Positions 3,149 through 63,380 of a DNA stretch of 64,000 nucleotides are shown here, piece after piece. Position 1 is the stretch's first letter. Every line of letters starts with the position of its first letter. The stretch comes from Patescibacteria group bacterium. Its GTDB lineage: Bacteria > Patescibacteriota > WWE3 > UBA101185 > UBA10185. The position numbers and the translations under genes were made by a program. The stretch is taken from NCBI GenBank assembly GCA_049322215.1, contig JBMORU010000001.1, forward strand, positions 969,759 through 1,033,758, in the 5' to 3' direction. The notes below the pieces were generated by a model. It saw nothing but the letters and a program-made list of their open reading frames with translations, had not been told where the DNA came from and did not search any database.

Positions 3149-5797
3149 TTATTTAGAAACGCGAAGTTTTATGCGCACATCACCTTTACGGCCATCTTCG
3201 TCTTCGGCTACAACATTAAATTCATGCTCGCCAGCCTGCGATTCAGGAAATGTTAAGTTATATCCATATGGCTCAGAAGAATCATCTGCAATTTTTTCTC
3301 CATCAATATAAAATCTTACTTCATCAATATCGTTTGGAGAAGAGACCTCAACCTTTAGTCTAAACTTTAAAGGAACATAGTCACCATCTTTTAAACCAAC
3401 AATATGAACTTCAGGGTTTACATCTTCTTTAAGCTTGCCGTCTTCATATTTAAGTGCTGATTTACTTGTAGGAGGAAAATATAAGTCGTTTCCATTGTAG
3501 TTTTCGCCAACCCAAGCATCTACGTCGTCTTGCCATTCGGGAAGTTCGGCAGTGATTTTAATGTATGTGTTTACTTCAGACTTGTCGGCATTTCTACAAG
3601 AGTCATTAGCTAACTTACCGTCTTTTTCACAAACTTCTACGCTTTGATACCATTCACTGGGCGCCGTAGGTTCGGTACCCTCAATAAACCACTCCTGGCG
3701 GCGAGAAAACTCACCATAGGGAAGTGCTCCCGTTAATTCATCCACTTCAATTTTTTTTACATTTTCAGGAGGCTCAAATTTTTCGTTTTCTTTATCTGCT
3801 AAATACTCACGCATGAATCTATTACCTATGGGTGTAGCTCCAGTTATACCTGATGCTACAAAAGGATTCATTTTGTCATTGTTATTGTTACCAACCCAAA
3901 CCCCTGCCACTACAGAGGGTGTGTATGCCATAAAGTAGTTATCTCGTTTATCATCGGTTGTACCTGTTTTTACAGCAACTTGATGCCCTGGAATATTTAG
4001 CAAACTGCCAGAACCAAAAGCAGCAGAACGAGCACCGTCATCAGACAAAATATCACTCATTAAAAAGGCAACATCTTCTCCAATAACTTGTTGCCCACCA
4101 TTATCTCTCCAACTGTATAAAATATCTCCGCGAGAATTTTTAACTTCTAAAATTCCTGTAGGTTTTCTGTAAACGCCTTTTGCTGCAAGAGTAGAGTATG
4201 CCCCTGTCATTTCTAAAAGCTTAGTTTCTCCGCCTCCTAAAGTTAATGACAAACCATAGCGAGTGGGGTCAGAAAAAGTTGTTATACCCATTGCTTTTGC
4301 TGTATCTATCATAGATTGTATTCCTACAATTTCTAAAGCTTTAACGGCGGGTATGTTCAAAGAATTACCCAAAGATTTTCTAAGAGAAGTAGGACCTTTA
4401 AAAGTGCCGTCATAATTTTCTGGTGTATAAGGCTTGCCCGCATCAGCTTTTTCAAATGTTGTTGGAACGTCTAAAAAGGGGTAAGCAGCAGTATAACCTT
4501 GAGAAAGCATTGTTGCATAAGTAATAGGCTTTATAGAAGATCCAGGTTGCCGGTTAGCTAAAGCAACATTAAGTTGAGGTTCGAAGGTACAACTGTTATC
4601 ACCAGTAATTCCTGAAATACAGCCTTCAGGCTCAGATTCGGCAAAGTAATCTTTAGAACCTACCATAGCCAAAACCTGGCCGGTTTTCGCATCTAAAGCA
4701 ACTAAAGACCCGTTTCCTACATTTAAGTTTTTAGCAGCATCAACTTCTTCTTTTACTATATTTTGTGCCATATCTTGAACATCTAAATCTAATGTGGTTG
4801 TTACCTGCAAACCACCCTGTTCTACCATTTCCTCACCGTATATTTCTACTAATTCATCTCTAACAAAAAATACAAAATGGGGAGCTTTAAAACTTGTTAA
4901 TGCAGTATCAAAAGATAAGTCTACCTGTTTTGCTGCTTCATACTCATCTTTGTTTAAATAATGCCATTGACCGCCTTCTTCCACCCAGCCATTATCAGTC
5001 ATTAAAAATAAAACATAATTTTTACGCTCTAAGCCTGCATTAGGGTCAGAACTGTAGGGTGAATATCTGCTTGGGCTCTGAGGTAACCCAGCTAAGTAGG
5101 CTGCCTCTGCCAAAGTTAGTTCTGAAGGGTGCTTGTTAAAATAAGATTTTGCGGCAGTTAAAATACCATAATTTTGACCACCATAAGGAGTTTCGTTCAA
5201 ATACATTTGAAGTATTTCATCTTTAGAATATTTATTTTCCAGTTGAAGCGCCAAAATAAGTTCTTTTACTTTACGAGAAATTGTTTGTTCTTGAGATAAA
5301 AGTGTGTTTTTTACTACCTGTTGTGTAAGAGTAGAACCACCCTGCAACCCTTCACCTAAAACTATATTACGTGTGGCTCTTAACATACCCCGCAAAGAAA
5401 ACCCTTGATGCTGATAAAATTCAGCATCTTCAGTTGCTAAAGTTGCTTGAACAACATATGGTGAAACATCTTCTAAAGAAACCAACTCGCGATTCTTTTC
5501 GCCATAAACTTCGAAAATAGAGGTTCCATTACGATCGTAAAGCTTTGTTGATAACTCAGCGTCTCTATTAAGTAATCTATCGGGGGTAGGTAAATCTCTA
5601 GAAAATACAGCCAATAAAATAACTACACCTAAAACACCTACCAATATTGAAAACAATGAAAAAGATGCGAGATAAGTTAAATACAATAGTGTCTTAGACC
5701 CCTTATATTTTGTATTAGCTTGAGGTTTTGGGGGTCGGTACGGTGTATACTTTCTCTTTGTTTTTCCACCAAATTTTTTAAAAATTTCCAAAGACAT
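3149..5797 (-). CDS. class A penicillin-binding protein (transglycosylase + transpeptidase) with a roughly 300-aa C-terminal Ig-like extension. The start is revised to the ATG at 5797.
   Basis: TM anchor LLYLTYLASFSLFSILVGVLGVVILLAVF. GT51 motifs EDAEFYQHQGF / GGSTLTQQ. Transpeptidase motifs SSIKP (SxxK), SLN and KTGTT. The listed ORF start at 6166 reads through antisense of the 5922 gene and is not credible. Confidence 0.8.
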   Translation of the reverse strand: MSLEIFKKFGGKTKRKYTPYRPPKPQANTKYKGSKTLLYLTYLASFSLFSILVGVLGVVILLAVFSRDLPTPDRLLNRDAELSTKLYDRNGTSIFEVYGEKNRELVSLEDVSPYVVQATLATEDAEFYQHQGFSLRGMLRATRNIVLGEGLQGGSTLTQQVVKNTLLSQEQTISRKVKELILALQLENKYSKDEILQMYLNETPYGGQNYGILTAAKSYFNKHPSELTLAEAAYLAGLPQSPSRYSPYSSDPNAGLERKNYVLFLMTDNGWVEEGGQWHYLNKDEYEAAKQVDLSFDTALTSFKAPHFVFFVRDELVEIYGEEMVEQGGLQVTTTLDLDVQDMAQNIVKEEVDAAKNLNVGNGSLVALDAKTGQVLAMVGSKDYFAESEPEGCISGITGDNSCTFEPQLNVALANRQPGSSIKPITYATMLSQGYTAAYPFLDVPTTFEKADAGKPYTPENYDGTFKGPTSLRKSLGNSLNIPAVKALEIVGIQSMIDTAKAMGITTFSDPTRYGLSLTLGGGETKLLEMTGAYSTLAAKGVYRKPTGILEVKNSRGDILYSWRDNGGQQVIGEDVAFLMSDILSDDGARSAAFGSGSLLNIPGHQVAVKTGTTDDKRDNYFMAYTPSVVAGVWVGNNNNDKMNPFVASGITGATPIGNRFMREYLADKENEKFEPPENVKKIEVDELTGALPYGEFSRRQEWFIEGTEPTAPSEWYQSVEVCEKDGKLANDSCRNADKSEVNTYIKITAELPEWQDDVDAWVGENYNGNDLYFPPTSKSALKYEDGKLKEDVNPEVHIVGLKDGDYVPLKFRLKVEVSSPNDIDEVRFYIDGEKIADDSSEPYGYNLTFPESQAGEHEFNVVAEDEDGRKGDVRIKLRVSK

Positions 5798-5866
5798 CGT
5801 TGAGTAATTATAGCAATTTAAAACCAATTTTTCATGACTACACACTAGATTACTATGGGGTTTAGA

Positions 5867-5874
5867 TGTATAAT
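5867..5874 (+). promoter_or_regulatory. extended -10 promoter (TGTATAAT) for the lipoprotein gene at 5922
   Basis: TGnTATAAT lies 48 nt upstream of the ATG; RBS AAGGAGAG. Confidence 0.4.
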
Positions 5875-5921
5875 ATAAGGAGTATCGATACTTTCGGATA
5901 GTCATAAGGAGAGTTTGACAA

Positions 5922-6560
5922 ATGAATATTAAAAAATTTGCTGGTCGGGTTTTGCTCATGCTTGCGGTATTGATCTTGATCGGTTGCCAACGACAAGAGC
6001 GGATTTCGATCCTGACCTTTGTTGCAACTTTCACCCCCACACCAACGGTTACGGCAACACCCCTTCCGACTGCAACGCCAACCTTGATCCCGATAGCTAA
6101 TGCTACGGAAGAACCCGAAGCAGTGGCGATTGCAACAACCCCAACAGCAGGCGAACAGGCTTTCATTGACGCCGTTAATGGGTTTGCAAACTCTGAGGTA
6201 GGCGAATGGGTCTTAAGCGACGTTGAAAACCCTCAAGAAGTTACTGGTGACGCTATTATAGGCATTGCCCGAAACATTTTGGCAGCGGTCTACGCCCAAT
6301 TGCAGGAGCAAGGAGCTTTGCCGGAAGACATGCCTACCCTGGAAGATGCATTAGAAGTTTTAAGCACGCCAGAGAAAGCGTTAGCCTTCGGTAGCTGCTT
6401 TAATCCCGCAATCGAATCCTACGAGGAAAATCAAAATGCAGCTGCGCTCGCGGAACAGCTTGCCTACTGCATCGAAAACGTAGACGAATACGAAGGAAAT
6501 CTCGATTTGCGTCGGGCAGTGACAGATTTCATTATCAATCAAATCACAACGGAGGAATAA
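5922..6560 (+). CDS. putative lipoprotein (212 aa; lipobox LIGC; Thr/Pro-rich linker), GC-rich island
   Basis: Signal peptide MNIKKFAGRVLLMLAVLILIGC, then TPTPTVTATPLPTATPT linker. About 52% GC by hand count in 60-nt windows at 5941-6060, against about 27% in a 60-nt window in recG (8301-8360). Confidence 0.6.
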   Translation: MNIKKFAGRVLLMLAVLILIGCQRQERISILTFVATFTPTPTVTATPLPTATPTLIPIANATEEPEAVAIATTPTAGEQAFIDAVNGFANSEVGEWVLSDVENPQEVTGDAIIGIARNILAAVYAQLQEQGALPEDMPTLEDALEVLSTPEKALAFGSCFNPAIESYEENQNAAALAEQLAYCIENVDEYEGNLDLRRAVTDFIINQITTEE

Positions 6561-42304: not shown

Positions 42305-44275
<1,971 letters not shown>

Positions 44276-44296: not shown

Positions 44297-44860
44297 ATGA
44301 GTGAAGGAATACCTCCATACGCTAATGAAATACATTCACTAATAGAACAACTTTCGGAAGAAGCCAAAAGACAAGAAATTTTAGATTTAGAGCCAAAAGA
44401 AGGAAAAAACAAGGTCAAAGCTTTAGTTTTTTGCGATGCTGGAAAAAACAGAAGCTTGATGATAGCAGATCAACTAAAAAAACGAGGATACGAAGCCAAT
44501 AACTACGGAACAGGTAACTCAAATCCTTTTGAACCCTCCGCTATAGAAAATTCCGGTTTTCAAGTAATTGTTTTTGCAGATGAAACCGTAGAAGAAAACT
44601 TTTATAAAATACTGGAGGCTACAGGACATACCGAATCACCTTTATTAAAATTACCAACTAGAACATTAGACATTAAAGAAAGTAATGGAATAAGAGGGTA
44701 TAGAAACTCAACAAATCCATTCAACAAGCAAAAAGAGGTTGAAAAGGTAGTAGGGGAAACTAATCAAAAGCTTGAAAATTTAGGCTTTGTAAATAAAAAT
44801 GCCGAAAAAATAGAATCATTAGTAAATGAGATGGAACTGGAGGAAAGAGAATATGCCTAA
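44297..44860 (+). CDS. low-molecular-weight phosphotyrosine-phosphatase-like protein (divergent)
   Basis: LVFCDAGKNRS contains a CX5R(S) P-loop, as in VCLGNICRS; about 45-aa N-terminal extension. Confidence 0.35.
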   Translation: MSEGIPPYANEIHSLIEQLSEEAKRQEILDLEPKEGKNKVKALVFCDAGKNRSLMIADQLKKRGYEANNYGTGNSNPFEPSAIENSGFQVIVFADETVEENFYKILEATGHTESPLLKLPTRTLDIKESNGIRGYRNSTNPFNKQKEVEKVVGETNQKLENLGFVNKNAEKIESLVNEMELEEREYA

Positions 44861-45371
44861 AAAACTTCGCAAAAGGTTGTACGTAGAAAAAGGTTTTACT
44901 TTACTAGAGCTTTTAATTGTAATCACGGTTATAAGTATATTAGCCTCACTTTTAGTTGTTGTACTCAATGCAGGAGAATATCTTGGAGCATCAAGAGATT
45001 CGCACAGAGTTACAGACTTAAATAAAGTGCAGTTGGCTATTACAAATGCTTTAACTGACAATGCAATAGAATTAACCGACACAACAGGATGTACAACATG
45101 TAACAGCCTAACCGGAACCACGGCTATAGATGGTACAGGTTGGGTACAATTTAACAATACAAGTGGCAATGGCTTATCAGGATTGTTATTTGTACTACCA
45201 GTTGACCCTACAAATGAAGGAAATCATGTATACAGATATTATTCAAATGGAACAGATTTTGAAATAAACGTTAACTTTGAATCTGAAAAATTCACAAATG
45301 AAAACGCAGTTTCAGATGGAGGAAACAATGATTCGGTATATGAAAAAGGCTGGGATTTAACAATTAACTAA
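44853..45371 (+). CDS. orphan type IV pilin (start revised to the second ATG: MPKKLRKRLYVEKGFTLLELLIVITVISIL)
   Basis: RBS GGAGG. Homologous to the pilin at 36868 (TTGCTTCNS...GTTAIDGTGWV...VDPTNEG...GTDFEINVNFE...DGGNNDSVYEKGWDLTIN). Confidence 0.65.
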   Translation: MPKKLRKRLYVEKGFTLLELLIVITVISILASLLVVVLNAGEYLGASRDSHRVTDLNKVQLAITNALTDNAIELTDTTGCTTCNSLTGTTAIDGTGWVQFNNTSGNGLSGLLFVLPVDPTNEGNHVYRYYSNGTDFEINVNFESEKFTNENAVSDGGNNDSVYEKGWDLTIN

Positions 45372-45376
45372 AAAAA

Positions 45377-45401
45377 TATCCCTACCTTTCGGTAGGGATA
45401 T
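45377..45401. terminator. bidirectional intrinsic terminator (ATATCCCTACC tttc GGTAGGGATAT) flanked by an A-run on one side and a T-rich tract on the other
   Basis: Perfect 11-bp stem between the convergent pilin and LPXTG genes. Confidence 0.65.
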
Positions 45402-45426
45402 TAAAAAGTCTACAAGTAAACTTTTT

Positions 45427-46683
45427 TTACTGTCTTTTCTTTAAGGCAAAACCGCTAGTTATAGATGTTAAGCCTAGCAAGGTTAACACTACAGTTGAAG
45501 TAGCACCTGTTCTAGGTAATTCTTCTATACTTAGCACTTCACCATTTTCGTAACATACCGTTGCGGTATCTGAAGCTTCTTCATTATCATCATATTTAGC
45601 TACAGCTTCATTAACTACACACTTACTAAAGTCAGTTCTGTCGTATTCTTCAGAGTTAACTTTAACAGTAATGTAAAAGGTTCTTTCTTCACCAGGTTTA
45701 AAGTTATCCCAATCTTCGGTTAAGTCACCTGAAAGCTTAGCTAACTCATCTGGTAAAAAATCGTGCATACGCATATTATCGAATTCTACATCGTCAACAT
45801 CACCTGAATCAGTGTTGTTTTTAACTACGATTCTAAACTCAACTTCATCATCTTCAGTAACACCGGTTACTTTATCTTTCCATGATTTGTCACCTTTAAT
45901 GCGAACTTTCTTCTCTATATCAAAGGATTTATTAACGATACAGTCACCACCACCATAAGAACATACAGGTTCTTCGGGTTCCTCTGGCTGTTCACACTCA
46001 GAAGCATTGTATGAAACAGTATGCTTTTCAGTGTCACCAGAGTTTACCTTAACTCTAAGTTCTACTTCACCTGAATCAATAGAAGTCAAATTTGTATCTA
46101 ACTTCCATGTTTCGGAATCTCCAGAATTCAAAGTACGTGTGTCACCAGTAATACCTGTTTGTTTGTCTTTAGGTGTAATTTCTACAACATAATTTGAATC
46201 ACTGTTATCATTATTTTTAACTTGAACGTTAATTACTACACTTTCTTCTTCGCATGCAACCTCAGCAGAATAGGTTATAGAACCTTCAGGCTCTTCTTCA
46301 CCTTTACAGTTTATAGCTTCATAAGATACTTTTCTTTTATCAGTACCCTTGTTGCCATTTGTCCAAGTTAAGTAAAATTCAACTTCACCGGCAGATACAC
46401 TATTTAAGCCTGTATCAATTTCCCAAATAGCTTCTTCACCGGGATTTACAGTTTTAGTATCTCCTGACACGCCAGACTGCAAATCTGTAGGTGTAACATC
46501 CATAGCAGCTTGAGAGTTCTTTTCAGTATTTTTAAAAGTCGCTTTAATGACTACAGAATTATCTGTACAAACAGCTTCAGCTTCTTGAGATGTTTTCCAT
46601 GCGTTAGTGCTATAAACAGGCATAAAGGCAACTGTAACGGCAACTAAAAGCATTGTCTTTGAAATATTTCTTTTAATATTCAT
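45427..46683 (-). CDS. LPXTG (LPRTG) sortase-anchored surface protein (start revised to the ATG at 46683: MNIKRNISKTMLLVAVTVAFMPV...)
   Basis: C-terminus LPRTGATSTVVLTLLGLTSITSGFALKKRQ is a sorting signal. The C-terminal roughly 190 aa are paralogous to the gene at 46846. The CTATAGGGTATAAT promoter is at about 46753-46766 (minus strand). Confidence 0.65.
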   Translation of the reverse strand: MNIKRNISKTMLLVAVTVAFMPVYSTNAWKTSQEAEAVCTDNSVVIKATFKNTEKNSQAAMDVTPTDLQSGVSGDTKTVNPGEEAIWEIDTGLNSVSAGEVEFYLTWTNGNKGTDKRKVSYEAINCKGEEEPEGSITYSAEVACEEESVVINVQVKNNDNSDSNYVVEITPKDKQTGITGDTRTLNSGDSETWKLDTNLTSIDSGEVELRVKVNSGDTEKHTVSYNASECEQPEEPEEPVCSYGGGDCIVNKSFDIEKKVRIKGDKSWKDKVTGVTEDDEVEFRIVVKNNTDSGDVDDVEFDNMRMHDFLPDELAKLSGDLTEDWDNFKPGEERTFYITVKVNSEEYDRTDFSKCVVNEAVAKYDDNEEASDTATVCYENGEVLSIEELPRTGATSTVVLTLLGLTSITSGFALKKRQ

Positions 46684-46792
46684 GGGGCAAGCCTCCAAAT
46701 TAATAAATACAAGTACAAAATAAGGATCCGAAGATCCTAAATATTCATTTATTATACCCTATAGTCACTACAGTGTCAAACTAGGACAAAAA

Positions 46793-46819
46793 GAGAAGGG
46801 CTCCGTAAGGAGCCCTTCT
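46793..46819 (-). terminator. intrinsic terminator (GAGAAGGGCTCC gtaa GGAGCCCTTCT + T-rich tract on the minus strand)
   Basis: Perfect stem 27 nt after the stop of the 46846 gene. Confidence 0.65.
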
Positions 46820-46845
46820 AAACATTAACTGTAACGTAGCTGACT

Positions 46846-47970
46846 TTACTTTCTTCTTTTCAAGGCATAACCACTAGTTATAGAGGTTAATCCCAGTAAG
46901 GTTAGTACTAATGTTGAAGCCGCACCTGTTTCAGGTAGTTCCTCAATGCCTAGTACATCTTCGGTGTCAGAATAACAAACGGTAGCCGTGTCAGAACCTT
47001 CTTCGGTTCCGTCATAAATCACTGTAGCCTCATTAACTACACACTTGTCAAAGTCAGATCTATCGTACTCATCAGGATCAACTCTTACTCTGATGATGAA
47101 AGTTCTTTCTTCACCAGGTTTAAAAGCATCCCAATCTTCAGTTAAGTCACCAGAAAGCTTAATTAGCTCATCTGGCAATATATCGTGCATTCTCATGTTA
47201 TCGAATGCAACACCATCAACATCGTTAGCGTCAGTTTTGTTTTTTACAACAACCCTAAACTCTACGACATCATCAAATTCAACATCAGTTACTTTATCTT
47301 TCCATTTTTTGTCACCCTCTATACGAACCTTTTTCTCTATATCAAATGACTTGTTAATGATACAGTTTTCACCACCTCCGTAGCCTCCACCGTAACCACC
47401 GTAGATACTACATGGGGTTTCTTCTGGATCATCTTCAGGTTCTGGCTCAGGTTCGTTAGCAGGACAGCTTATTTCATGATGTTGCGCAATACTGTCAGCA
47501 GCATAAAGCTTTAACTCTCCAGCTTTGGGCAAGGTGAATGAAGATTCAACCACCATACCTTGAGGGGACTCGTAAACAACTTCTCCATTAAGGTAAAACT
47601 TGTTTACACGTTCATCAACATCGTCGTCAATAAACACATAGCTGAATTCACATCCAGCAGGTAACTCCCCGAAATTCACCCATTCATGGAAGATTTTTGT
47701 GTAGGCTTCGGAGCTAGTCCAAACTCGTTCCTTACGTGTAGAAGTGTAAGTATCACTATCTACAGTATCAAAACGAAACGGATTAGTTCTTTTAACTACA
47801 AATACTTCATTAGAATCCTTTGTATAACTTGCACTACCTTCGCCCAAATACTGAGTTTCTGGTAAAGCAAAAGCCTCATTAAGAGGCATTATCCCAAGGG
47901 CTAAGATTGTCATAGCAACAACCTTAAGTGATTTATCAGAGAGCCTTGAAATGAATTTTATTAAGTTCAT
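46846..47970 (-). CDS. LPXTG (LPETG) sortase-anchored surface protein
   Basis: LPETGAASTLVLTLLGLTSITSGYALKRRK; GY/GG-rich segment; RBS AGGAAGGAG; a TATAAT next to CTATAGG lies upstream. Confidence 0.65.
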   Translation of the reverse strand: MNLIKFISRLSDKSLKVVAMTILALGIMPLNEAFALPETQYLGEGSASYTKDSNEVFVVKRTNPFRFDTVDSDTYTSTRKERVWTSSEAYTKIFHEWVNFGELPAGCEFSYVFIDDDVDERVNKFYLNGEVVYESPQGMVVESSFTLPKAGELKLYAADSIAQHHEISCPANEPEPEPEDDPEETPCSIYGGYGGGYGGGENCIINKSFDIEKKVRIEGDKKWKDKVTDVEFDDVVEFRVVVKNKTDANDVDGVAFDNMRMHDILPDELIKLSGDLTEDWDAFKPGEERTFIIRVRVDPDEYDRSDFDKCVVNEATVIYDGTEEGSDTATVCYSDTEDVLGIEELPETGAASTLVLTLLGLTSITSGYALKRRK

Positions 47971-48113
47971 TTAAGAACTCCTTCCTAGGTTTAAATTGTT
48001 AACCTATAGTAATTATAGGGGGAAAAGCAAAGTATGTCAAACGCTGAAACTAAACGCTTTGGGAGGGTTTATTAGTTGCTAAATATTAATAATAAATGTG
48101 ATAAACTACGATC

Positions 48114-48659
48114 ATGAAAAAGACAAACTCACACTTTCACACAATTCCGCAGGATAAAGCTCCTGAGGTCTTAAATTTAATTGTAGAAATTAAAAAAGGG
48201 GATATAAACAAATACGAATATAACCATGAGCTCGGAATCATAGAGCTAGATAGAGTGCTTTATGGACCAGTTCATTTTCCCGTTAATTATTGCGATGTAC
48301 CAAGAACATGGAATGAAGACGACGGCGATCCATTGGACGCTGTAGTTTTCACAAGTGGAAATTTAGTACCTGGGTGTATGGTAAAGGGTAGAGTAATTGG
48401 AGTTATGGAAATGGATGATAACGGCGAAAAAGATAACAAAATAATATGTGTGGCTAAAAAAGATCCCAGATTTAATCAAGTTAAACATGTAGATGACTTA
48501 AGAGAATACGAAAAGAAAGATTTAAAAACTTTCTTTGAAACATACAAGTATGCGCAAACGGGTCCAGGGACAGTAACAATCGGCGAATTTTTGGGACCTG
48601 AAGCAGCGTACAAGCTAATTAAAGACGCAATGGAAGCCTACGATAGACTTTTTGAATGA
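48114..48659 (+). CDS. ppa: inorganic pyrophosphatase (family I)
   Basis: DGDPLD and VIGVMEMDD motifs. Confidence 0.85.
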   Translation: MKKTNSHFHTIPQDKAPEVLNLIVEIKKGDINKYEYNHELGIIELDRVLYGPVHFPVNYCDVPRTWNEDDGDPLDAVVFTSGNLVPGCMVKGRVIGVMEMDDNGEKDNKIICVAKKDPRFNQVKHVDDLREYEKKDLKTFFETYKYAQTGPGTVTIGEFLGPEAAYKLIKDAMEAYDRLFE

Positions 48660-48792: not shown

Positions 48793-49245
48793 TTACAAAG
48801 GGGCACTAACGTGCAGTAGCAACATGCCCATTTCACCAATTGGCCACCAAGCCTCATCATGGCATACACGCCCTTTACCGCTGTCTTTTTCAGGGTTAAG
48901 CACCGTGTGTAAAAACTTTTCTTCATCTGCCATAGAGGTGGGCAATGTCAAAATAAGATCAACATTTGGACTGCTGCGCTGAGTGTGCTTCCACGAAAGC
49001 CAGTGCAAATTCGCTCTGCTTCTGGTAAACGCCAGGTCAGCAAGCCTACTTAAAAATCCAACCCTAATAGCTAATCTGCGCAAAAGCACAGGTAGGGGAC
49101 GTCGATCAACAACGGTTACACTAAGAAAACCTGCATCCTCAACGTAAAAATCATAAACAACTTGTCCAGGAATAGCCTTTTGTATACGCAGAAACGGCAA
49201 AAGACTCTTGTCTACCTTTAAACCCTCATATACTTTATTTCGCAT
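48793..49245 (-). CDS. hypothetical protein (150 aa), GC-rich
   Basis: RBS AAGGAGAGA. I counted about 52% GC in 48841-48900. CCTATAGTG lies upstream on the minus strand. Confidence 0.45.
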   Translation of the reverse strand: MRNKVYEGLKVDKSLLPFLRIQKAIPGQVVYDFYVEDAGFLSVTVVDRRPLPVLLRRLAIRVGFLSRLADLAFTRSRANLHWLSWKHTQRSSPNVDLILTLPTSMADEEKFLHTVLNPEKDSGKGRVCHDEAWWPIGEMGMLLLHVSAPL

Positions 49246-49365: not shown

Positions 49366-51963
49366 ATGTCAAAAGAAGAGATAACAGCCCTAGATGCTTC
49401 AAACAATAAGCAAGAGGCAACAAACCTAATAAAAGCTGATATTACAACCGAAATGCAAAAAGCGTATTTGGATTACTCTATGAGTGTTATTGTCTCAAGA
49501 GCATTACCTGATGTACGCGACGGATTAAAACCTGTACACAGAAGAATAATATACGCAATGCAAGATCAAACTATGTACTACAACGGAAAGTATCATAAAT
49601 GTGCAGCCGTTGTAGGTGAAGTTTTAAAAAAGTACCATCCTCATAGCGACACCTCAGTATACGATGCTTTAGTTCGTATGGCGCAAAACTTTTCATTACG
49701 CTACACCTTAATAGATGGACAGGGTAACTTTGGAAGCATTGACGGAGATCCTCCTGCTGCTATGCGTTATACCGAATGTAAAATGGAACAACTAGCCGGA
49801 GAACTATACCGTGACATAGACAAAGATACTGTTGATTTTATGTTAAATGACCTCCAAAACGAAGAACCCGCAGTTTTGCCATCTGTTATACCAAACGTGT
49901 TGCTTAACGGAGCACAAGGTATTGCTGTAGGAATGGCAACTAATATTCCACCACATAATTTAAATGAACTTATAGATGGAATTAACCTTTTAATTGAAAA
50001 CTCAGATTATATAGGAGAAAAACCTGAAAAAGATACTAAACATGAATCAGAAGAAATAATTGCTAAAACAGGATTTTCATCTTCTGCAACTGTAGAAGAT
50101 TTAGTAAAAGTTGTAAAAGGACCTGACTTTCCAACGGGCGGAATAATTTATGATCAAAAAGAAATTATTCAAATGTATGCTACAGGTAAAGGAAGAATAG
50201 TAACCAGAGCAAAAATGGAAATTGAAGAAGACAAAAAGGGTAGAATGCGCATCATTGTTACCGAAATTCCATATCAAGTTAACAAATCCTCATTAATTGA
50301 AAAAATTGCAAAACTCGTTAGAGATAAAAAAATAACTGGCGTCGCAGATTTAAGAGATGAATCAAACAGAAAAGGTATGCGTATAGTTATTGAACTTAAA
50401 AAAGATGCCTTACCTAAAAAAGTACAAAACAGATTGTATAAACATACGCCCCTTCAAACATCATTCAATGCAAATATGGTTGCGCTTTTAGACGGTGAAC
50501 CAAAATTAATGACTTTGAAGGTAATTTTGGAAGAATTTATTAAACATCGCCAAATAGTTGTTGTTAGAAGAACAATATTTTTACTTAAAAAAGCACGAGC
50601 TCGTCAGCACATTTTACTGGGCTTAAAAATAGCATTAGATAATTTAGATGAAGTCATAAAACTTATTAGAAATAGTAAAGATACCGAGGTTGCTAAAACT
50701 GGACTTATGACAAAGTTTAAACTGACTGAAATACAGGCGCAAGCAATTTTAGACATGCAATTACGTCGTTTAGCCGCACTTGAAAGACAAAAAATAGAAG
50801 ACGAACTAAAGCAGATAACAGAAACCATCGAAGACTACGAGGATTTATTAATTTCACCAGAAAGAATCATGACTGTAGTAAAAGATGAGTTAACAGAGAT
50901 AAGAGAAAAGTATGGTGATGAAAGAAAAACTAAGGTTATTAAGAGCAAAGTAGGGGAGCTGTCTGACGAAGATTTAATAGTGAATGAAAGTTGCATAATT
51001 ACTATTTCTAGAAGTGGTTATATTAAAAGATTGAAACCTGATACTTACAAAAAACAAGGCCGCGGCGGAAAAGGCGTTAAAGGACAAGAACTCAGAGAAG
51101 AGGATATTGTAGACACAATTCGCATATGTAATACGCATGACTACGCACTATTCTTTACTAATAAAGGTAAGGTATATAAATTAAGGATTTGGGAAATACC
51201 AGAAACACTAAGAACTGCAAAAGGAACCGCATTAGTTAACTTTTTGGGCATTTCGCAAAGTGAAAATATACAAGCCTTTATATCGTTATCTGCAGAGCAA
51301 ATGGATGCTGAAGAAGGATTTATTGTATTTGGAACTGAAAAAGGAACAGTAAAGAAAACTTCCTTAGCAGATTTTGCTAATATAAGGTCTTCAGGAATTA
51401 TGGCAATTAAAATAGCTGACGGGGATGATCTTGTTAGAGTGTTACTAAGTGATGGGAAATCTGACGTTTTAATGGTTACAGCACAAGGGCAGTCTATAAG
51501 ATTTCCTGAGAAACAAATTAGAACAATGGGACGCACAGCTGGAGGAGTAATGGGTATAAAACTGGTTAAAGATGATGATCAAGTAGTTGGGATGGATTTA
51601 ATAGATGAGAACTCTACAAAAACATGCAGTTTATTTGTAGTAACCGAAAAAGGGAATGGTAAAAAAACACTAGTTACTGAATATAAAGCACAAAACAGAG
51701 GTGGTTCTGGTATTTTAACTTATAAAGTCACACCAAAAACCGGAAAAGTTAACACAGGAAGAATCATAGATAGCAGTGTAGAAATGGATATATTAATTGT
51801 TTCTTCATCAGGAAAAGTAATTCGACTTGATGAAAAGCAAATACCACAGTTAGGTAGAGCAACACAAGGTGTTAGATTAATATCATTAAGTGCATCTGAT
51901 AAAGTTTCCTCCACAGCAATTATTTCAGAAGAAGAGGAGCTTGAGAAAATAGAGAATGAATAG
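49366..51963 (+). CDS. gyrA: DNA gyrase subunit A
   Basis: AMRYTE(C) catalytic Tyr region, QGNFGSIDGD, and a C-terminal beta-pinwheel. Confidence 0.9.
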   Translation: MSKEEITALDASNNKQEATNLIKADITTEMQKAYLDYSMSVIVSRALPDVRDGLKPVHRRIIYAMQDQTMYYNGKYHKCAAVVGEVLKKYHPHSDTSVYDALVRMAQNFSLRYTLIDGQGNFGSIDGDPPAAMRYTECKMEQLAGELYRDIDKDTVDFMLNDLQNEEPAVLPSVIPNVLLNGAQGIAVGMATNIPPHNLNELIDGINLLIENSDYIGEKPEKDTKHESEEIIAKTGFSSSATVEDLVKVVKGPDFPTGGIIYDQKEIIQMYATGKGRIVTRAKMEIEEDKKGRMRIIVTEIPYQVNKSSLIEKIAKLVRDKKITGVADLRDESNRKGMRIVIELKKDALPKKVQNRLYKHTPLQTSFNANMVALLDGEPKLMTLKVILEEFIKHRQIVVVRRTIFLLKKARARQHILLGLKIALDNLDEVIKLIRNSKDTEVAKTGLMTKFKLTEIQAQAILDMQLRRLAALERQKIEDELKQITETIEDYEDLLISPERIMTVVKDELTEIREKYGDERKTKVIKSKVGELSDEDLIVNESCIITISRSGYIKRLKPDTYKKQGRGGKGVKGQELREEDIVDTIRICNTHDYALFFTNKGKVYKLRIWEIPETLRTAKGTALVNFLGISQSENIQAFISLSAEQMDAEEGFIVFGTEKGTVKKTSLADFANIRSSGIMAIKIADGDDLVRVLLSDGKSDVLMVTAQGQSIRFPEKQIRTMGRTAGGVMGIKLVKDDDQVVGMDLIDENSTKTCSLFVVTEKGNGKKTLVTEYKAQNRGGSGILTYKVTPKTGKVNTGRIIDSSVEMDILIVSSSGKVIRLDEKQIPQLGRATQGVRLISLSASDKVSSTAIISEEEELEKIENE

Positions 51964-55372: not shown

Positions 55373-56359
55373 TTAAATTAAACTATTAATTTCGTCAGCA
55401 GTATCATCAACATCTTTATGAAACTTTGTGTGAATGTCTTTTAGCTGTTTATTTGTAACATGCGTATATATTTGGGTAGTAGACACATTAGAATGACCTA
55501 ATAGCTCTTGTACAGAACGTAAATCAGCACCCTCAGACAAAAGTCCGGTAGCAAATGTATGACGCAAAGTGTGTGGAGTAGCATCAATAGACAATCCGGC
55601 TCTAGTAACGTATTTTTTTATCATACGTTGCACACTTCTAGGCGTTAATCTTAAAGATTCGCCATCTTCATCACCAACTTCCATACGCTTGCCAGAATAA
55701 CGTAAGAATAAAGGTACGAAATTATCTCTACGCGTAGATAAGTAACGCTTTAACCAATCTTTAGCGCTAGGACTTAAATAAACTGTACGAACTTTTCGAC
55801 CTTTACCTACAACGGTAAATTCTCCTGAATTTAAATTTATGTCAGATACATCTAAATTTACTAATTCGCTTACACGTAACCCAGTGCTAAATAGGGTTTC
55901 AAGCATAGCTCTATCACGAATACCTGATTTCTTACTTAAATTTTGTGTTGAAAACAAGCCCTGCAATTGTTCTTCATTTAAAACTTTAGGAACACGTGCC
56001 TCTGGTTTACCTAAAATTATTTGTTCGGGGGATACTGTGTCTAAACCTAACTCCACCACAATGTATTTCAAAAAGGCACGAATTGCGACAAGAAATGTTT
56101 TTTGTGTAGATTTCTTGAATTCTTCATGCGATTTATTACTTATACGTCGGTTTAAATTTAAACGATACTTTCTAAGTAGTTCTTGATCAATATCGGATAC
56201 GTAAAAATCATCCTTCTTTAAATATGCCTTAGACCACTCAATAAAGTCATTTAAATAAAAATCGTACATACGAATTGTATTTTGAGAAAGGTTTTTTTCA
56301 ATTTCACAATGTTCTAAATAACGCGTAAGTAATTCTTTTAGAGATTTGGTCATAAACAT
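55373..56359 (-). CDS. tyrosine site-specific recombinase (XerC/XerD family)
   Basis: ...HTLRHTFATGLL...LLGHSNVSTTQIYTHV (R, H-x-x-R, and Y nucleophile). Confidence 0.8.
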   Translation of the reverse strand: MFMTKSLKELLTRYLEHCEIEKNLSQNTIRMYDFYLNDFIEWSKAYLKKDDFYVSDIDQELLRKYRLNLNRRISNKSHEEFKKSTQKTFLVAIRAFLKYIVVELGLDTVSPEQIILGKPEARVPKVLNEEQLQGLFSTQNLSKKSGIRDRAMLETLFSTGLRVSELVNLDVSDINLNSGEFTVVGKGRKVRTVYLSPSAKDWLKRYLSTRRDNFVPLFLRYSGKRMEVGDEDGESLRLTPRSVQRMIKKYVTRAGLSIDATPHTLRHTFATGLLSEGADLRSVQELLGHSNVSTTQIYTHVTNKQLKDIHTKFHKDVDDTADEINSLI

Positions 56360-60770: not shown

Positions 60771-63332
60771 TCATTTGGAATGCCCAGTACTTTTCTCTGT
60801 TTCCATGGCTTTTCGTGCTTTATGCTCTTGGGAGATAGCTAAACCTTTATCGAACTGTCTATCTACCCAACGACGTATTCTTTCCTCTACAATGCGTCTA
60901 TCTGTACCGTAGTTTTGTCTACTTAGTTGAAGAGCACGTTCTCTGTTGGTAGCAGATCTAGGTACAAACGGTGGAACAGACTTTGCAGAAAAAGGCAAAG
61001 AAGTTGTTCCATTAATTACCATCTTAATATACATATTATACTTATCCAATGAAATTATATCGTTTGGAGTAAATTGAGGTGCAAACTCATTTGCAAGCAA
61101 TCGGGCATCACTCGCACCTAACCCAAAGGCAGCAATTGTTCCAACATTACCTAACACAGCACTCAATAAATAATCAGGAAGCTGAGATGTATATTGATGC
61201 GTTAGGTACAAACCTAGCTTATATTTACGTGACTCTGACAAAATAGACTCAAAACTACCTGTAGCAAAGTTTTGAAACTCGTCTACATATAAGTAAAATT
61301 CTCTTCTTTGTTCTGGGGCTAATTTTGCTCTTTGCAAGGCCATAAATTGAATTCTAGATACTAATAAGGCACCTAACAAATTGGCATTATCTTCACCTAC
61401 TTTACCTTTTGATAAATTTAGCAAAAGTATTTTTCCTGTATTCATGGCGTCCCAAATGTTAATTGTGGATTTTGGTTGACCCAATATATTTCGAATGGTT
61501 GTGGAAGCTAGAAATCTGTTTATTTTATTTTGTATGGGGGCAACCGCTTCTGTAGCTAATTTAGCATTCCCTCGCATAGCTGCGTACTCCTTTTCCCAAA
61601 ACTCCAAAACAACTGGGTCTTTTATATAGTGAAGAATATATTTTTGATAGTTCATGTCTCCAAGTAGGCGTGTAATAGAAAGCATGGTTGTGCCTGGGAC
61701 CTCAAGCAAAGTCAAAATAGCATAGTTTAACAAGTATTCTAACCTGGGTCCCCAGGAATATTCAAAGTGCACTTTAATTGCCGAAACAAGAGCAGATGCC
61801 ATTAAGTTTTTTTGTGACTGATCCTCTATTTCAAGTAAGTTAATTCCCACAGGATACGCAGTGTCAGAAGGATCAACTATTATTACATCTTTTAATCTGT
61901 GATCAGGAATATATTCCAAAACGTGGTCTATTAATTCGCCGTGTGGATCTAATACACCAACACCAAAACCATTATATATATCTTGCGTAATCATTGTTTC
62001 AAACAATGTCGACTTACCTACACCGGTTTTACCAATTAAATACATATGCCTTAAACGATCTCCCGTTGTATTATCTATACCAAAGGCAATACTCTGGCCT
62101 CTGTATGTAGTACGCCCAATATAGCAACAGTTTTCCGTTGGTAGATGTGAAGGGGGCTCCCCTTTTTTAGAATAAATCCATGACATATTAGGAGTTTCTA
62201 CATTAGATGTAGGCAAATGAAATATAGAAGCCATTTCAGTAATGTTTAATACATAACTGTTTTCCGTACTAAAAGTACGCGCCTTATATTTTTCAAAAGC
62301 CAATGAATTACTTACCTCATGATTAGTAATAAAGCTATTTAAGTTAGATGTGGAAAACTGGCGCATCGAGGCAGAAAAAGACCTTACTAGGTTTTTTGAA
62401 CGCTCCTGAGAATTAGAAGAAGCCAAAATTCTTATACTTACCTCAAAACCCATTTTCTCTAGCTTTGTTTCTATTGCTTCTACCATAACTTCTTCGGAAC
62501 CGGTTAGCTCTGGTTTCTCTGGAGCACTAGGGCCGGAAGACTGCTTACTACCTAAACCACTATCAGCAGAACTTCCAGCCAAAGCATCCGCAATTCCTCC
62601 AACTACGGCATATGTTAATGTTAAAAGTAAATCCAAAACAAAATCTAAAACATTGAAACCTTTTCTTTTTGATACAGCTTTTCCTGTAAGTAATTCTTTC
62701 ACATAATCGTAACCTTCTTCTTGCCAAACATCTGCAATTGGCCGTACAAGTAATTGTAACCACACAGTTTCCCCTTCTTCGGCCTCAGATAAAGCAGAAG
62801 TTAATGCAGCTAATGGGTCTACTTCAAAATCTCTAAATGTCTTTATAGGAAATATTTGGTTTTTTAATAAATTCATGTGAGCAACTTCAAATTTTTTATC
62901 TATAGGCTCAATGGCGTAGTCATCTACACGTTCGATGTGCGCTTCAGGGTATTGTGCATAAATTTGGCTTTCTACAAATTTATAAATGTGTCTAGGAACA
63001 ACAGCAAAAAATCTAATACCTTTAGCGTCTGAAGTTATTTCAAAAGTAAAGTGTTCTTGAACACCTGCATCTTCTCGCAACAATCCGTGCAAAGAAGCAA
63101 ACATCTGTTCTGCGGCAATAGGGGCTGTTTTGGTTACACCAATTTCAGGCATATCGCTCCAGGGAACCTGTATTTGAAGAAACACAGGATCATCAATTTT
63201 TTCTTCAACTATAGGTGTATCTTTTCTTTTTTTGGCTAAAACTAAAACTACGACAATTACTGCCACTAATGGGATAACAAGTAAAAAAGGTAAAATGGGC
63301 TGTAAAGAATTAAATATCTGATTAAAATTCAT
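60771..63332 (-). CDS. VirD4/TraG/TraD-like (type IV coupling protein-like) P-loop ATPase with an N-terminal TM and about 400-aa unknown domain (start revised to the ATG at 63332)
   Basis: Walker A LIGKTGVGKST. Walker B / TraG-D_C-like FYLYVDEFQNF. Perfect SD AAGGAGGTG 9 nt upstream. The listed start at 63344 is GTG. Confidence 0.6.
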   Translation of the reverse strand: MNFNQIFNSLQPILPFLLVIPLVAVIVVVLVLAKKRKDTPIVEEKIDDPVFLQIQVPWSDMPEIGVTKTAPIAAEQMFASLHGLLREDAGVQEHFTFEITSDAKGIRFFAVVPRHIYKFVESQIYAQYPEAHIERVDDYAIEPIDKKFEVAHMNLLKNQIFPIKTFRDFEVDPLAALTSALSEAEEGETVWLQLLVRPIADVWQEEGYDYVKELLTGKAVSKRKGFNVLDFVLDLLLTLTYAVVGGIADALAGSSADSGLGSKQSSGPSAPEKPELTGSEEVMVEAIETKLEKMGFEVSIRILASSNSQERSKNLVRSFSASMRQFSTSNLNSFITNHEVSNSLAFEKYKARTFSTENSYVLNITEMASIFHLPTSNVETPNMSWIYSKKGEPPSHLPTENCCYIGRTTYRGQSIAFGIDNTTGDRLRHMYLIGKTGVGKSTLFETMITQDIYNGFGVGVLDPHGELIDHVLEYIPDHRLKDVIIVDPSDTAYPVGINLLEIEDQSQKNLMASALVSAIKVHFEYSWGPRLEYLLNYAILTLLEVPGTTMLSITRLLGDMNYQKYILHYIKDPVVLEFWEKEYAAMRGNAKLATEAVAPIQNKINRFLASTTIRNILGQPKSTINIWDAMNTGKILLLNLSKGKVGEDNANLLGALLVSRIQFMALQRAKLAPEQRREFYLYVDEFQNFATGSFESILSESRKYKLGLYLTHQYTSQLPDYLLSAVLGNVGTIAAFGLGASDARLLANEFAPQFTPNDIISLDKYNMYIKMVINGTTSLPFSAKSVPPFVPRSATNRERALQLSRQNYGTDRRIVEERIRRWVDRQFDKGLAISQEHKARKAMETEKSTGHSK

Positions 63333-63380
63333 TTGTTTGTACACCTCCTTAGCATAAAAATAGCTTTATAAACACATCAA

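Follow-up and report, generated by a model that had tools for sequence, protein, structure and literature searches.

Tandem LPXTG surface proteins with different N-terminal heads and a shared CLIPPER-like stalk in a WWE3-type Patescibacteria genome

Cell-wall-anchored LPXTG proteins of Gram-positive bacteria combine a signal peptide with an LPXTG motif, a hydrophobic segment, and a basic tail. A head, a stalk, and an anchor make up the typical adhesin design (PMC12617251). The CLIPPER domain (PF01345, formerly DUF11; crystal structure 9IFR) occurs as tandem repeats in long stalks, and its isopeptide chemistry has been described; adhesins that are not polymerized often contain CLIPPER or CnaA-like domains as well (PMC12617251). 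Gram-positive shaft pilins, such as BcpA (3KPT), CppA (5XCB), RrgB (2X9Z), and GBS80 (3PF2), are built of two to four domains.

Two adjacent minus-strand genes of this type were analyzed in a 64-kb stretch of a Patescibacteria (CPR) genome (hereafter, the window). Gene A (46846-47970) encodes a 374-aa LPETG surface protein (MFZ5425232.1), and gene B (45427-46683) encodes a 418-aa LPRTG surface protein (MFZ5425231.1). Both open reading frames matched entries of the protein collection exactly, and for gene B the earliest ATG that can serve as a start, at 46683, gives the 418 aa reported by gene callers. The open reading frame of gene B extends further upstream to a TTG at 46698. Both products already bear the NCBI name "LPXTG cell wall anchor domain-containing protein," and they are of an ordinary surface-protein kind, which combines an LPXTG anchor and an Ig-like stalk, and are publicly annotated as such.

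When the full-length proteins were compared with Pfam and NCBIfam, the anchor motif alone was matched, with scores above the curated cut-offs for both PF00746 (25.3 bits for gene A and 24.6 for gene B; cut-off 20) and TIGR01167 (21.5 and 21.8 bits; cut-off 15.9). The sorting signal of gene A (46849-46938, minus strand) reads EELPETG-AASTLVLTLLGLTSITSGYAL-KRRK, with LPETG at residues 345-349, and its tail was modeled by AlphaFold2 as a helix (residues 351-373). That of gene B (45430-45519, minus strand) reads EELPRTG-ATSTVVLTLLGLTSITSGFAL-KKRQ, with LPRTG at residues 389-393. The original prediction of LPRTG and LPETG signals followed by a hydrophobic segment and a charged tail thus holds on inspection, with 21 hydrophobic or small residues preceding KRRK or KKRQ. 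Across 63 relatives, genes A and B included, the extended motif E-L-P-x-T-G was invariant or nearly so.

Export signals were assigned by inspection. The signal peptide of gene A (residues 1-35; 47866-47970, minus strand) begins with basic residues, continues with a hydrophobic core, and ends in an A-x-A site, with predicted cleavage between NEAFA and LPETQ; residues 12-24 of this region were modeled as a helix (AlphaFold2). In gene B, the signal peptide (residues 1-28; 46600-46683, minus strand) likewise consists of a basic N-terminal region and a hydrophobic core, and the predicted site lies between YSTNA and WKT, that is, between TNA and W.

The C-terminal modules of the two proteins are paralogous. 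They had been described as nearly identical over about 190 aa, which overstated the similarity: 131 of 173 residues were identical (76%, E 1e-81), the compared stretch is 173-178 aa long, and nucleotide identity was also 76%. The 178 aligned codons contained 54 synonymous and 41 non-synonymous differences, which indicates that the modules were duplicated long ago and have been kept under purifying selection. The N-terminal regions do differ, as predicted, the two heads being unrelated in alignment.

The module is best described as a divergent single CLIPPER/DUF11-like Ig stalk domain, located at residues 204-335 of gene A (46966-47361, minus strand) and 249-380 of gene B (45544-45939, minus strand). 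The tentative label "DUF11-like" was right at the family level: 46 of the 63 relatives matched PF01345 (E<=0.01; best 3.4e-8) and 26 matched PF24346. Genes A and B by themselves had no DUF11 match in Pfam at E<=1, and P0073, the short paralogue of the same genome (below), scored 19.9 bits on the DUF11 model (cut-off 24.6). The family profile gave nothing meaningful against PDB sequences; in a search of 1.84 billion representatives, it picked up proteins composed of many repeats, in which as many as 37 stretches matched. The module model (pLDDT 88) has a CnaA-like Ig beta-sandwich fold.

Five residues of the module, Lys213, Asp263, Asn313, Cys310, and Cys332 in gene A numbering (Lys258, Asp308, Asn358, Cys355, and Cys377 in gene B), were invariant in 63/63 sequences. 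By hhalign, Asp263 was aligned to the catalytic Asp of 9IFR (LNDTLGQG), in an alignment of only 48 columns with a probability of 5.8%, and VVN(E/K) of the module corresponds to VVNK in 9IFR. The Lys and Asn were assigned from position and invariance; in the AlphaFold2 model, Lys213 lies in strand 209-217 and Asn313 in strand 308-319. Judging from these residue patterns, the Lys-Asp-Asn triad probably marks an isopeptide bond within the domain.

The module also occurs on its own, as the entire mature part of a protein family of about 205 aa in WWE3-type Patescibacteria. The search found 71 relatives, mostly such short Patescibacteria proteins. The original prediction was correct about the conserved module itself and missed that this module is by itself a whole small protein, widespread and linked to sortase, and that heads have been added to it. 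Heads joined to this C-terminal module recur: in the profile search of 1.84 billion representatives, 18 of the best 59 matches exceeded 300 aa.

In species-representative genomes, 68 loci were identified, nearly all labeled WWE3 or Saccharibacteria; three at contig ends were left out, leaving 65 informative loci with downstream sequence. A same-strand sortase gene was located directly downstream in 62 of them. The GTDB representatives scanned exclude the genome of the window, and the best match among them was 60% identical. The short family is near-universal in the WWE3 lineage. The cassette of short CLIPPER protein, sortase, and rho was not found in full-text literature searches, and the literature on sortase or LPXTG with CPR or WWE3 contained passing mentions only.

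No sortase was found in the 64-kb window, either by a TLxTC-type motif search in six frames or by tblastn with two Patescibacteria sortases. The same genome holds a canonical short copy, P0073 (MFZ5424209.1, 221 aa; P0074 is a longer gene call), in the order short copy, sortase, rho, LysM-M23 peptidase, obg. P0073 is recorded on a contig of 1,112,869 bp, which is also the recorded length of the contig with genes A and B. The gene order was read on a contig (L077) that was tied to the genome of the window through an identical protein, this equal length, and the same sequencing run. The sortase (L077, 10935-11591) scored 80.4 bits on PF04203 (cut-off 26.6) and contains the His, TLITC, and Arg catalytic motifs. 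The sortase implied by the sorting signals is therefore present in this genome, immediately following the gene of P0073, which is a short third paralogue. Its identity with the modules of genes A and B is 60-63%, and all three have the lineage-specific spacer VL(G/S)I(E/S)ELPxTG. Sortase very probably fastens both proteins to the cell wall. A Gram-positive-type wall, also anticipated earlier, is supported by the presence of a class A penicillin-binding protein and by a type IV pilus operon in which no secretin was matched.

Two of the three loci without a sortase are second copies (L050 and L069), whose genomes also hold a linked copy. Such copies, like the lack of a sortase next to genes A and B in the window, would also fit proteins never processed by sortase, in which the C-terminal helix permanently tethers them to the membrane, the LPXTG-like motif being a relic. 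We consider this very unlikely: the motif positions E, L, P, T, and G show little or no variation in the 63 sequences, genes A and B included, their codon differences point to purifying selection, and the genome does encode a sortase.

On the NCBIfam class F model (NF033748), which was the best-scoring class and was matched over its whole length, three Patescibacteria sortases reached 83.7, 96.3, and 92.6 bits (cut-off 166), so that specificity is not readable from class. Being about half of the cut-off, these scores place the Patescibacteria sortases in a separate, unclassified branch. On the class C (pilus) model, they scored 24-29 bits (cut-off 160).

The low class C scores weigh against a sortase-assembled pilus, in which the short protein would be a one-domain shaft pilin polymerized by the adjacent sortase via a conserved lysine, with genes A and B as alternative tip or accessory subunits joined via the LPXTG threonine. 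Several features are consistent with such a structure: the dedicated sortase adjoining nearly all short genes, three further near-invariant lysines in the module (Lys207, Lys226, and Lys309), the exact family ELPxTG signal retained by the head-bearing paralogues, and the terminator-like hairpins that separate the structural gene from the sortase at L077, as would be expected for an abundant subunit. But known shaft pilins have at least two domains, no pilin motif or E-box was recognized, NF033902 (SpaH/EbpB major pilin) gave 15.4 bits against a cut-off of 95, and non-polymerized adhesins often carry domains of the CLIPPER and CnaA-like type as well. It is thus improbable that WWE3-type Patescibacteria build a minimal sortase-dependent fiber of one-domain CLIPPER proteins polymerized head-to-tail, with genes A and B as interchangeable tip adhesins. 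If they did, these ultrasmall epibionts would possess a second, covalent pilus system beside type IV pili, operated by a non-class-C sortase.

The heads of the two proteins are of different kinds. The head of gene A (47461-47865, minus strand) is a beta-rich domain of about 135 aa with the motif string YLGEG...ERVW...IDDDxDxRxN...PQGMV...YAADSIG...C and pLDDT of about 40-91 (AlphaFold2). It had no match in Pfam and belongs to a rare unnamed family; a homology search of 5.8 billion proteins yielded 7 further relatives only, all unnamed. Eighteen columns of the family alignment were invariant. The sole relative with the full gene A architecture (P0002) had no sortase within its 15-kb contig. Foldseek alignments of the full-length gene A model to GH2 galactosidases and transglutaminases were messy and spread over two domains (TM about 0.2), and no sugar-binding role was deduced from them. 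Between the head and the stalk of gene A lie an acidic Pro/Glu linker and a Gly/Tyr-rich loop from Cys187 to Cys203 (47362-47460, minus strand), the latter matching C-x-x-YGGGE-x-C, with which the short proteins of the family begin in their mature form.

The head of gene B consists of two repeats, at residues 36-126 (46306-46578, minus strand; bounded by Cys39 and Cys126) and 141-230 (45994-46263, minus strand; bounded by Cys144 and Cys230), which are 41% identical over 90 aa (E 2e-22). A homology search with them found no new homologues outside their own cluster.

Each gene was predicted to have its own promoter and terminator, and both were found at both genes. The promoters of gene A (48012-48040, minus strand) and gene B (46751-46779, minus strand) are TTGACA-17-TATAAT with 12/12 consensus matches, the only two perfect sigma-70 consensus promoters in the 64 kb. 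The terminator of gene A (46794-46819, minus strand) is an 11-bp stem followed by a T-run; that of gene B (45375-45402, minus strand) has a 12-bp stem with T-runs on both sides and is shared with a convergent pilin-like gene (44826-45371). Scans for Rfam families and for tRNAs found nothing in the window. The proposed CTATAGG promoter signature stood in part: the heptamer occurs at both promoters and is enriched in the window (15 observed against 6.6 expected), but its position is not fixed, being in the spacer just before the -10 element in gene B and 2 nt after it in gene A. At other places in the window, the form that recurs is CCTATAG directly adjoining TATAAT.

Promoters of this strength, the near-universal occurrence of the short family, and the absence of a recognizable ligand-binding family in Pfam and NCBIfam for either head would all suit non-adhesive structural wall or coat proteins, the module making up an abundant layer or spacer at the surface, where the heads would do no more than modulate surface properties or act as antigenic decoys. 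This explanation appears most unlikely. A head on a stalk on an anchor is a design typical of adhesins (PMC12617251), and distant organisms share the conserved head of gene A with its invariant acidic DDDxDxRxN cluster, which suggests a candidate specific metal- or ligand-binding site.

We therefore favor, with good though not full confidence, Sec-exported, sortase-anchored surface proteins composed of a variable head, a linker, and a CLIPPER stalk, and likely adhesive. The class-F-like sortase, encoded elsewhere in the genome, would cleave ELP(E/R)TG between Thr and Gly, and the cleaved proteins would be covalently linked to peptidoglycan. The first part of the mature proteins would be the N-terminal head, a single beta-rich domain in gene A and two orphan repeats of about 90 aa in gene B; the second, the acidic Pro/Glu linker; and the third, the complete mature form of the short family otherwise encoded directly upstream of the sortase gene. 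A Lys213-Asn313 isopeptide bond, whose formation Asp263 would catalyze, and a Cys310-Cys332 disulfide probably lock the stalk. The CLIPPER unit would serve as a rigid, protease-resistant stalk and anchor keeping the head off the wall, and the heads most likely bind something on the host cell or another surface. Genes A and B probably originated by duplication of the short sortase-linked copy in this genome and addition of heads at the N-terminus, and each would be transcribed alone from its consensus-strength promoter.

Patescibacteria live attached to other microbes, and to our knowledge their means of attachment beyond type IV pili are little known. Genes A and B, together with the short copy, suggest that a few proteins with exchangeable heads, probably expressed at a high level, are anchored covalently in the wall. 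Proteins of this kind would be obvious candidates for recognizing a host. The WWE3 cassette of short CLIPPER protein, sortase, and rho offers a compact testable system with one enzyme and one to three substrates.

Comparison with the described systems shows both likeness and divergence. The Patescibacteria sortases resemble class F sortases in their best-scoring model and its complete coverage and differ from them in reaching only about half of the cut-off. Compared with Gram-positive shaft pilins, the module has one domain instead of two to four, and it is accompanied by neither a class C sortase nor a recognized pilin motif and falls far below the SpaH/EbpB cut-off. Unlike the tandem CLIPPER repeats of long stalks (PF01345; 9IFR; PMC12617251), the module is single and directly precedes the anchor. 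It has insertions of about 10 and 6 residues between strands, its putative disulfide would bridge the last two strands rather than a CxxC bulge, and in genes A and B it lies below Pfam detection. The closest likeness is to the LPXTG proteins of Gram-positive bacteria. Unlike in those systems, the host is a member of the Patescibacteria, the motif is preceded by a family-specific Glu (ELPxTG), and the sortase is class-F-like but below the class F cut-off; as in them, a signal peptide, an LPXTG motif, a hydrophobic segment, and a basic tail are combined with a sortase bearing His, Cys, and Arg catalytic residues in the same genome.

Genes A and B quite likely encode surface proteins that are anchored by a sortase and probably act as adhesins, with one isopeptide-type stalk domain in each. 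Gene A (46846-47970, minus strand) is an open reading frame of 374 aa, and its neighbor gene B (45427-46683, minus strand) comprises 418 aa counted from the first ATG, the length given by gene callers and by NCBI. The C-termini of both proteins carry complete sorting signals, EELPETG-AASTLVLTLLGLTSITSGYAL-KRRK in gene A and EELPRTG-ATSTVVLTLLGLTSITSGFAL-KKRQ in gene B, and both pass the curated thresholds for PF00746 and TIGR01167, in line with the original prediction of adjacent genes with LPXTG-type signals. The predicted C-terminal module is common to both and paralogous, but "nearly identical" was an overstatement: BLASTP showed 76% identity over the C-terminal 173 residues (E 1e-81) and no similarity upstream of them, where the N-terminal regions had been expected to differ. 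Since the module codons carry 54 synonymous and 41 non-synonymous differences, with a nucleotide identity of 76%, the pair is an old duplication under purifying selection rather than a near-identical repeat.

Homology search revealed 71 relatives of gene A, most of them about 205 aa long, with a signal peptide followed by a C-x-x-YGGGE-x-C loop, then the module, and finally an ELPxTG anchor; the module found in both genes thus equals the entire mature form of these short proteins. The suspected relationship to DUF11 was borne out by the family, in which PF01345 (DUF11) matched 46 of 63 members and PF24346 (DUF7507) matched 26, but the proteins of genes A and B by themselves fell below both models in the Pfam scan. 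DUF11, now called CLIPPER after a recent renaming, has been shown to be a CnaA-like Ig domain in which Asp catalyses an intramolecular isopeptide bond between Lys and Asn; such domains are typical of fibrillar-adhesin stalks (PMC12617251). The assignment of the module to CLIPPER is supported by structure prediction and fold comparison, the confident AlphaFold2 model (pLDDT 88) agreeing better than the Foldseek comparison. Using the construct sequence of the solved structure 9IFR (supplementary Table S6 of the CLIPPER paper), hhalign placed Asp263 of gene A (MRMHD-ILPDE) opposite the catalytic Asp of 9IFR (LTLND-TLGQG) in a short, low-probability alignment. The other two members of the triad also sit where expected, Lys213 in the first and Asn313 in the penultimate strand, VVNE of gene A being the counterpart of VVNK in 9IFR. 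All three residues are invariant (63/63 sequences), as are Cys310 and Cys332, opposed across the last beta-hairpin. We infer that the module contains Lys213-Asn313 isopeptide and Cys310-Cys332 bonds.

Acidic Pro/Glu linkers connect the module to the differing N-terminal heads. The gene A head (47461-47865, minus strand, residues 36-170) is a rare, unnamed and separately conserved domain with invariant YLGEG, ERVW, DDDxDxRxN (an acidic cluster), A-x-DS, and a final Cys. It has no Pfam family and only 7 further relatives among 5.8 billion proteins; some of the handful of proteins containing it have Pro/Thr linkers and lack the anchor. In P0064 and P0066-P0071, relatives without an LPXTG anchor, it is joined to Pro/Thr linkers or a DUF7507 domain. 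The gene B head consists of two cysteine-bounded repeats of about 90 aa (41% identity between them), for which homology search found no homologues beyond their own cluster. An exhaustive search of 1.84 billion representatives with the family profile yielded 455 proteins at E<=1e-10, the lower-scoring ones shading into many-repeat CLIPPER proteins. Among the best 59 matches, 18 exceed 300 aa, with the module generally at or near the C-terminus, and therefore head, module, and anchor form a recurrent design.

The anchors implied a sortase; none was found within the 64-kb window, but one is present elsewhere in the genome. The canonical short copy P0073 (MFZ5424209.1, 221 aa), which clusters at 90% identity with relative P0007, is recorded on a contig of 1,112,869 bp, a length identical to that on record for genes A and B, whose proteins come from a Patescibacteria MAG. 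On a second contig of the same sequencing run (SRR32167788), the next gene after that for P0073 encodes a 218-aa sortase bearing the His, TLITC, and Arg catalytic motifs (80.4 bits for PF04203, 92.6 bits for the class F model), and rho, a LysM-M23 peptidase gene, and obg come after it. Two terminator-like hairpins lie between the structural gene and the sortase on this contig, L077. P0073 matches the two modules at 60-63% identity and has lineage-specific features in common with them, and so one genome carries all three paralogues. The case that would have refuted the original prediction, a genome lacking a sortase, therefore does not apply. With a sortase available and so strictly conserved a sorting motif, it is unlikely that the two proteins stay permanently tethered to the membrane in unprocessed form.

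The order short gene, sortase, rho, LysM-M23 peptidase, obg occurs in two Patescibacteria genomes. GTDB species representatives contained 68 loci of the family, nearly all labelled WWE3 or Saccharibacteria, and a same-strand sortase lies directly downstream in 62. Three loci stop at a contig edge and are uninformative for linkage, while three lack the sortase, two of these being second copies in genomes that also hold a linked copy. The WWE3-type cassette (about 205-aa CLIPPER-LPXTG protein, class-F-like sortase, rho, LysM-M23 peptidase, obg) was seen at L077 (10001-11591; same genome, outside the window), L002, L004, and 62 of the 68 loci in L008-L075. The main alternative is a fibre built by the sortase, in which the short protein would form the shaft and the products of genes A and B the tips. 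It would suit the pilin-like fold and dedicated sortase, but we consider it improbable, as there is no class C sortase, pilin-model match, or extra domain; the cassette sortases score best with class F, yet under its cut-off, and very low with class C.

Genes A and B each have their own promoter and terminator, as predicted. TTGACA-17-TATAAT promoters matching the consensus at 12/12 positions (minus strand, 48040-48012 for gene A and 46779-46751 for gene B) are the only perfect ones in the window, which suggests strong expression. The minus-strand terminators, strong hairpins with T-runs, lie at 46819-46794 (gene A) and 45402-45375 (gene B). The proposed CTATAGG signature is enriched in the window (15 observed versus 6.6 expected) and present in both promoters, but its placement differs, in the spacer for gene B versus 2 nt past the -10 for gene A; a layout that recurs elsewhere in the window is a palindromic CTATAG abutting TATAAT. 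CCTATAG abuts TATAAT 5' of plus-strand genes at 2760, 10378, 11443, and 12606 (also 46758 and 48003), and the palindromic CTATAG core may serve as an extended -10 or resemble an operator. The gene B leader contains a hairpin, AGGATC-TTCG-GATCCT followed by a T-run (46723-46738, minus strand), downstream of the -10 and ahead of the ribosome-binding site, which could act as a 5' stabiliser or attenuator.

The window has a G+C content of about 37%, and genes A and B lie between gyrB (42308-44275) and gyrA (49366-51963), in a block of about 5 kb that also includes a type IV pilin-like gene (44826-45371), an inorganic pyrophosphatase gene (48114-48659), a 150-aa open reading frame of no family (48793-49245), and a gene for a 187-aa unknown protein. 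Upstream is a large type IV pilus operon (20533-41513, minus strand) encoding PilB, PilT, PilC, at least seven N_methyl pilins, prepilin peptidase, and PilM/N/O, as well as two large proteins without a family assignment (955 and 1058 aa). A tyrosine recombinase/integrase (55373-56359, minus strand) and a VirB4/TrwB-like ATPase (DUF87, DUF8128; 60771-63344, minus strand) together give a hint of leftover type IV secretion or mobile-element genes. Since a class A penicillin-binding protein with transglycosylase, transpeptidase, and Big_7 domains is encoded (3149-6166, minus strand), the organism is predicted to make peptidoglycan; together with the pilus operon, in which no secretin match was found, this fits a single-membrane, peptidoglycan-bearing envelope, and so the presumed Gram-positive-type wall.

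The LPXTG signal, CLIPPER domain, and sortase are known parts in an expected arrangement, and NCBI already names both products "LPXTG cell wall anchor domain-containing protein" (gene A MFZ5425232.1, gene B MFZ5425231.1). Neither the WWE3 cassette, in which a sortase follows the short CLIPPER protein, nor the rare gene A head domain was found in the searchable literature, and both are modestly interesting leads on surface decoration by these epibionts.
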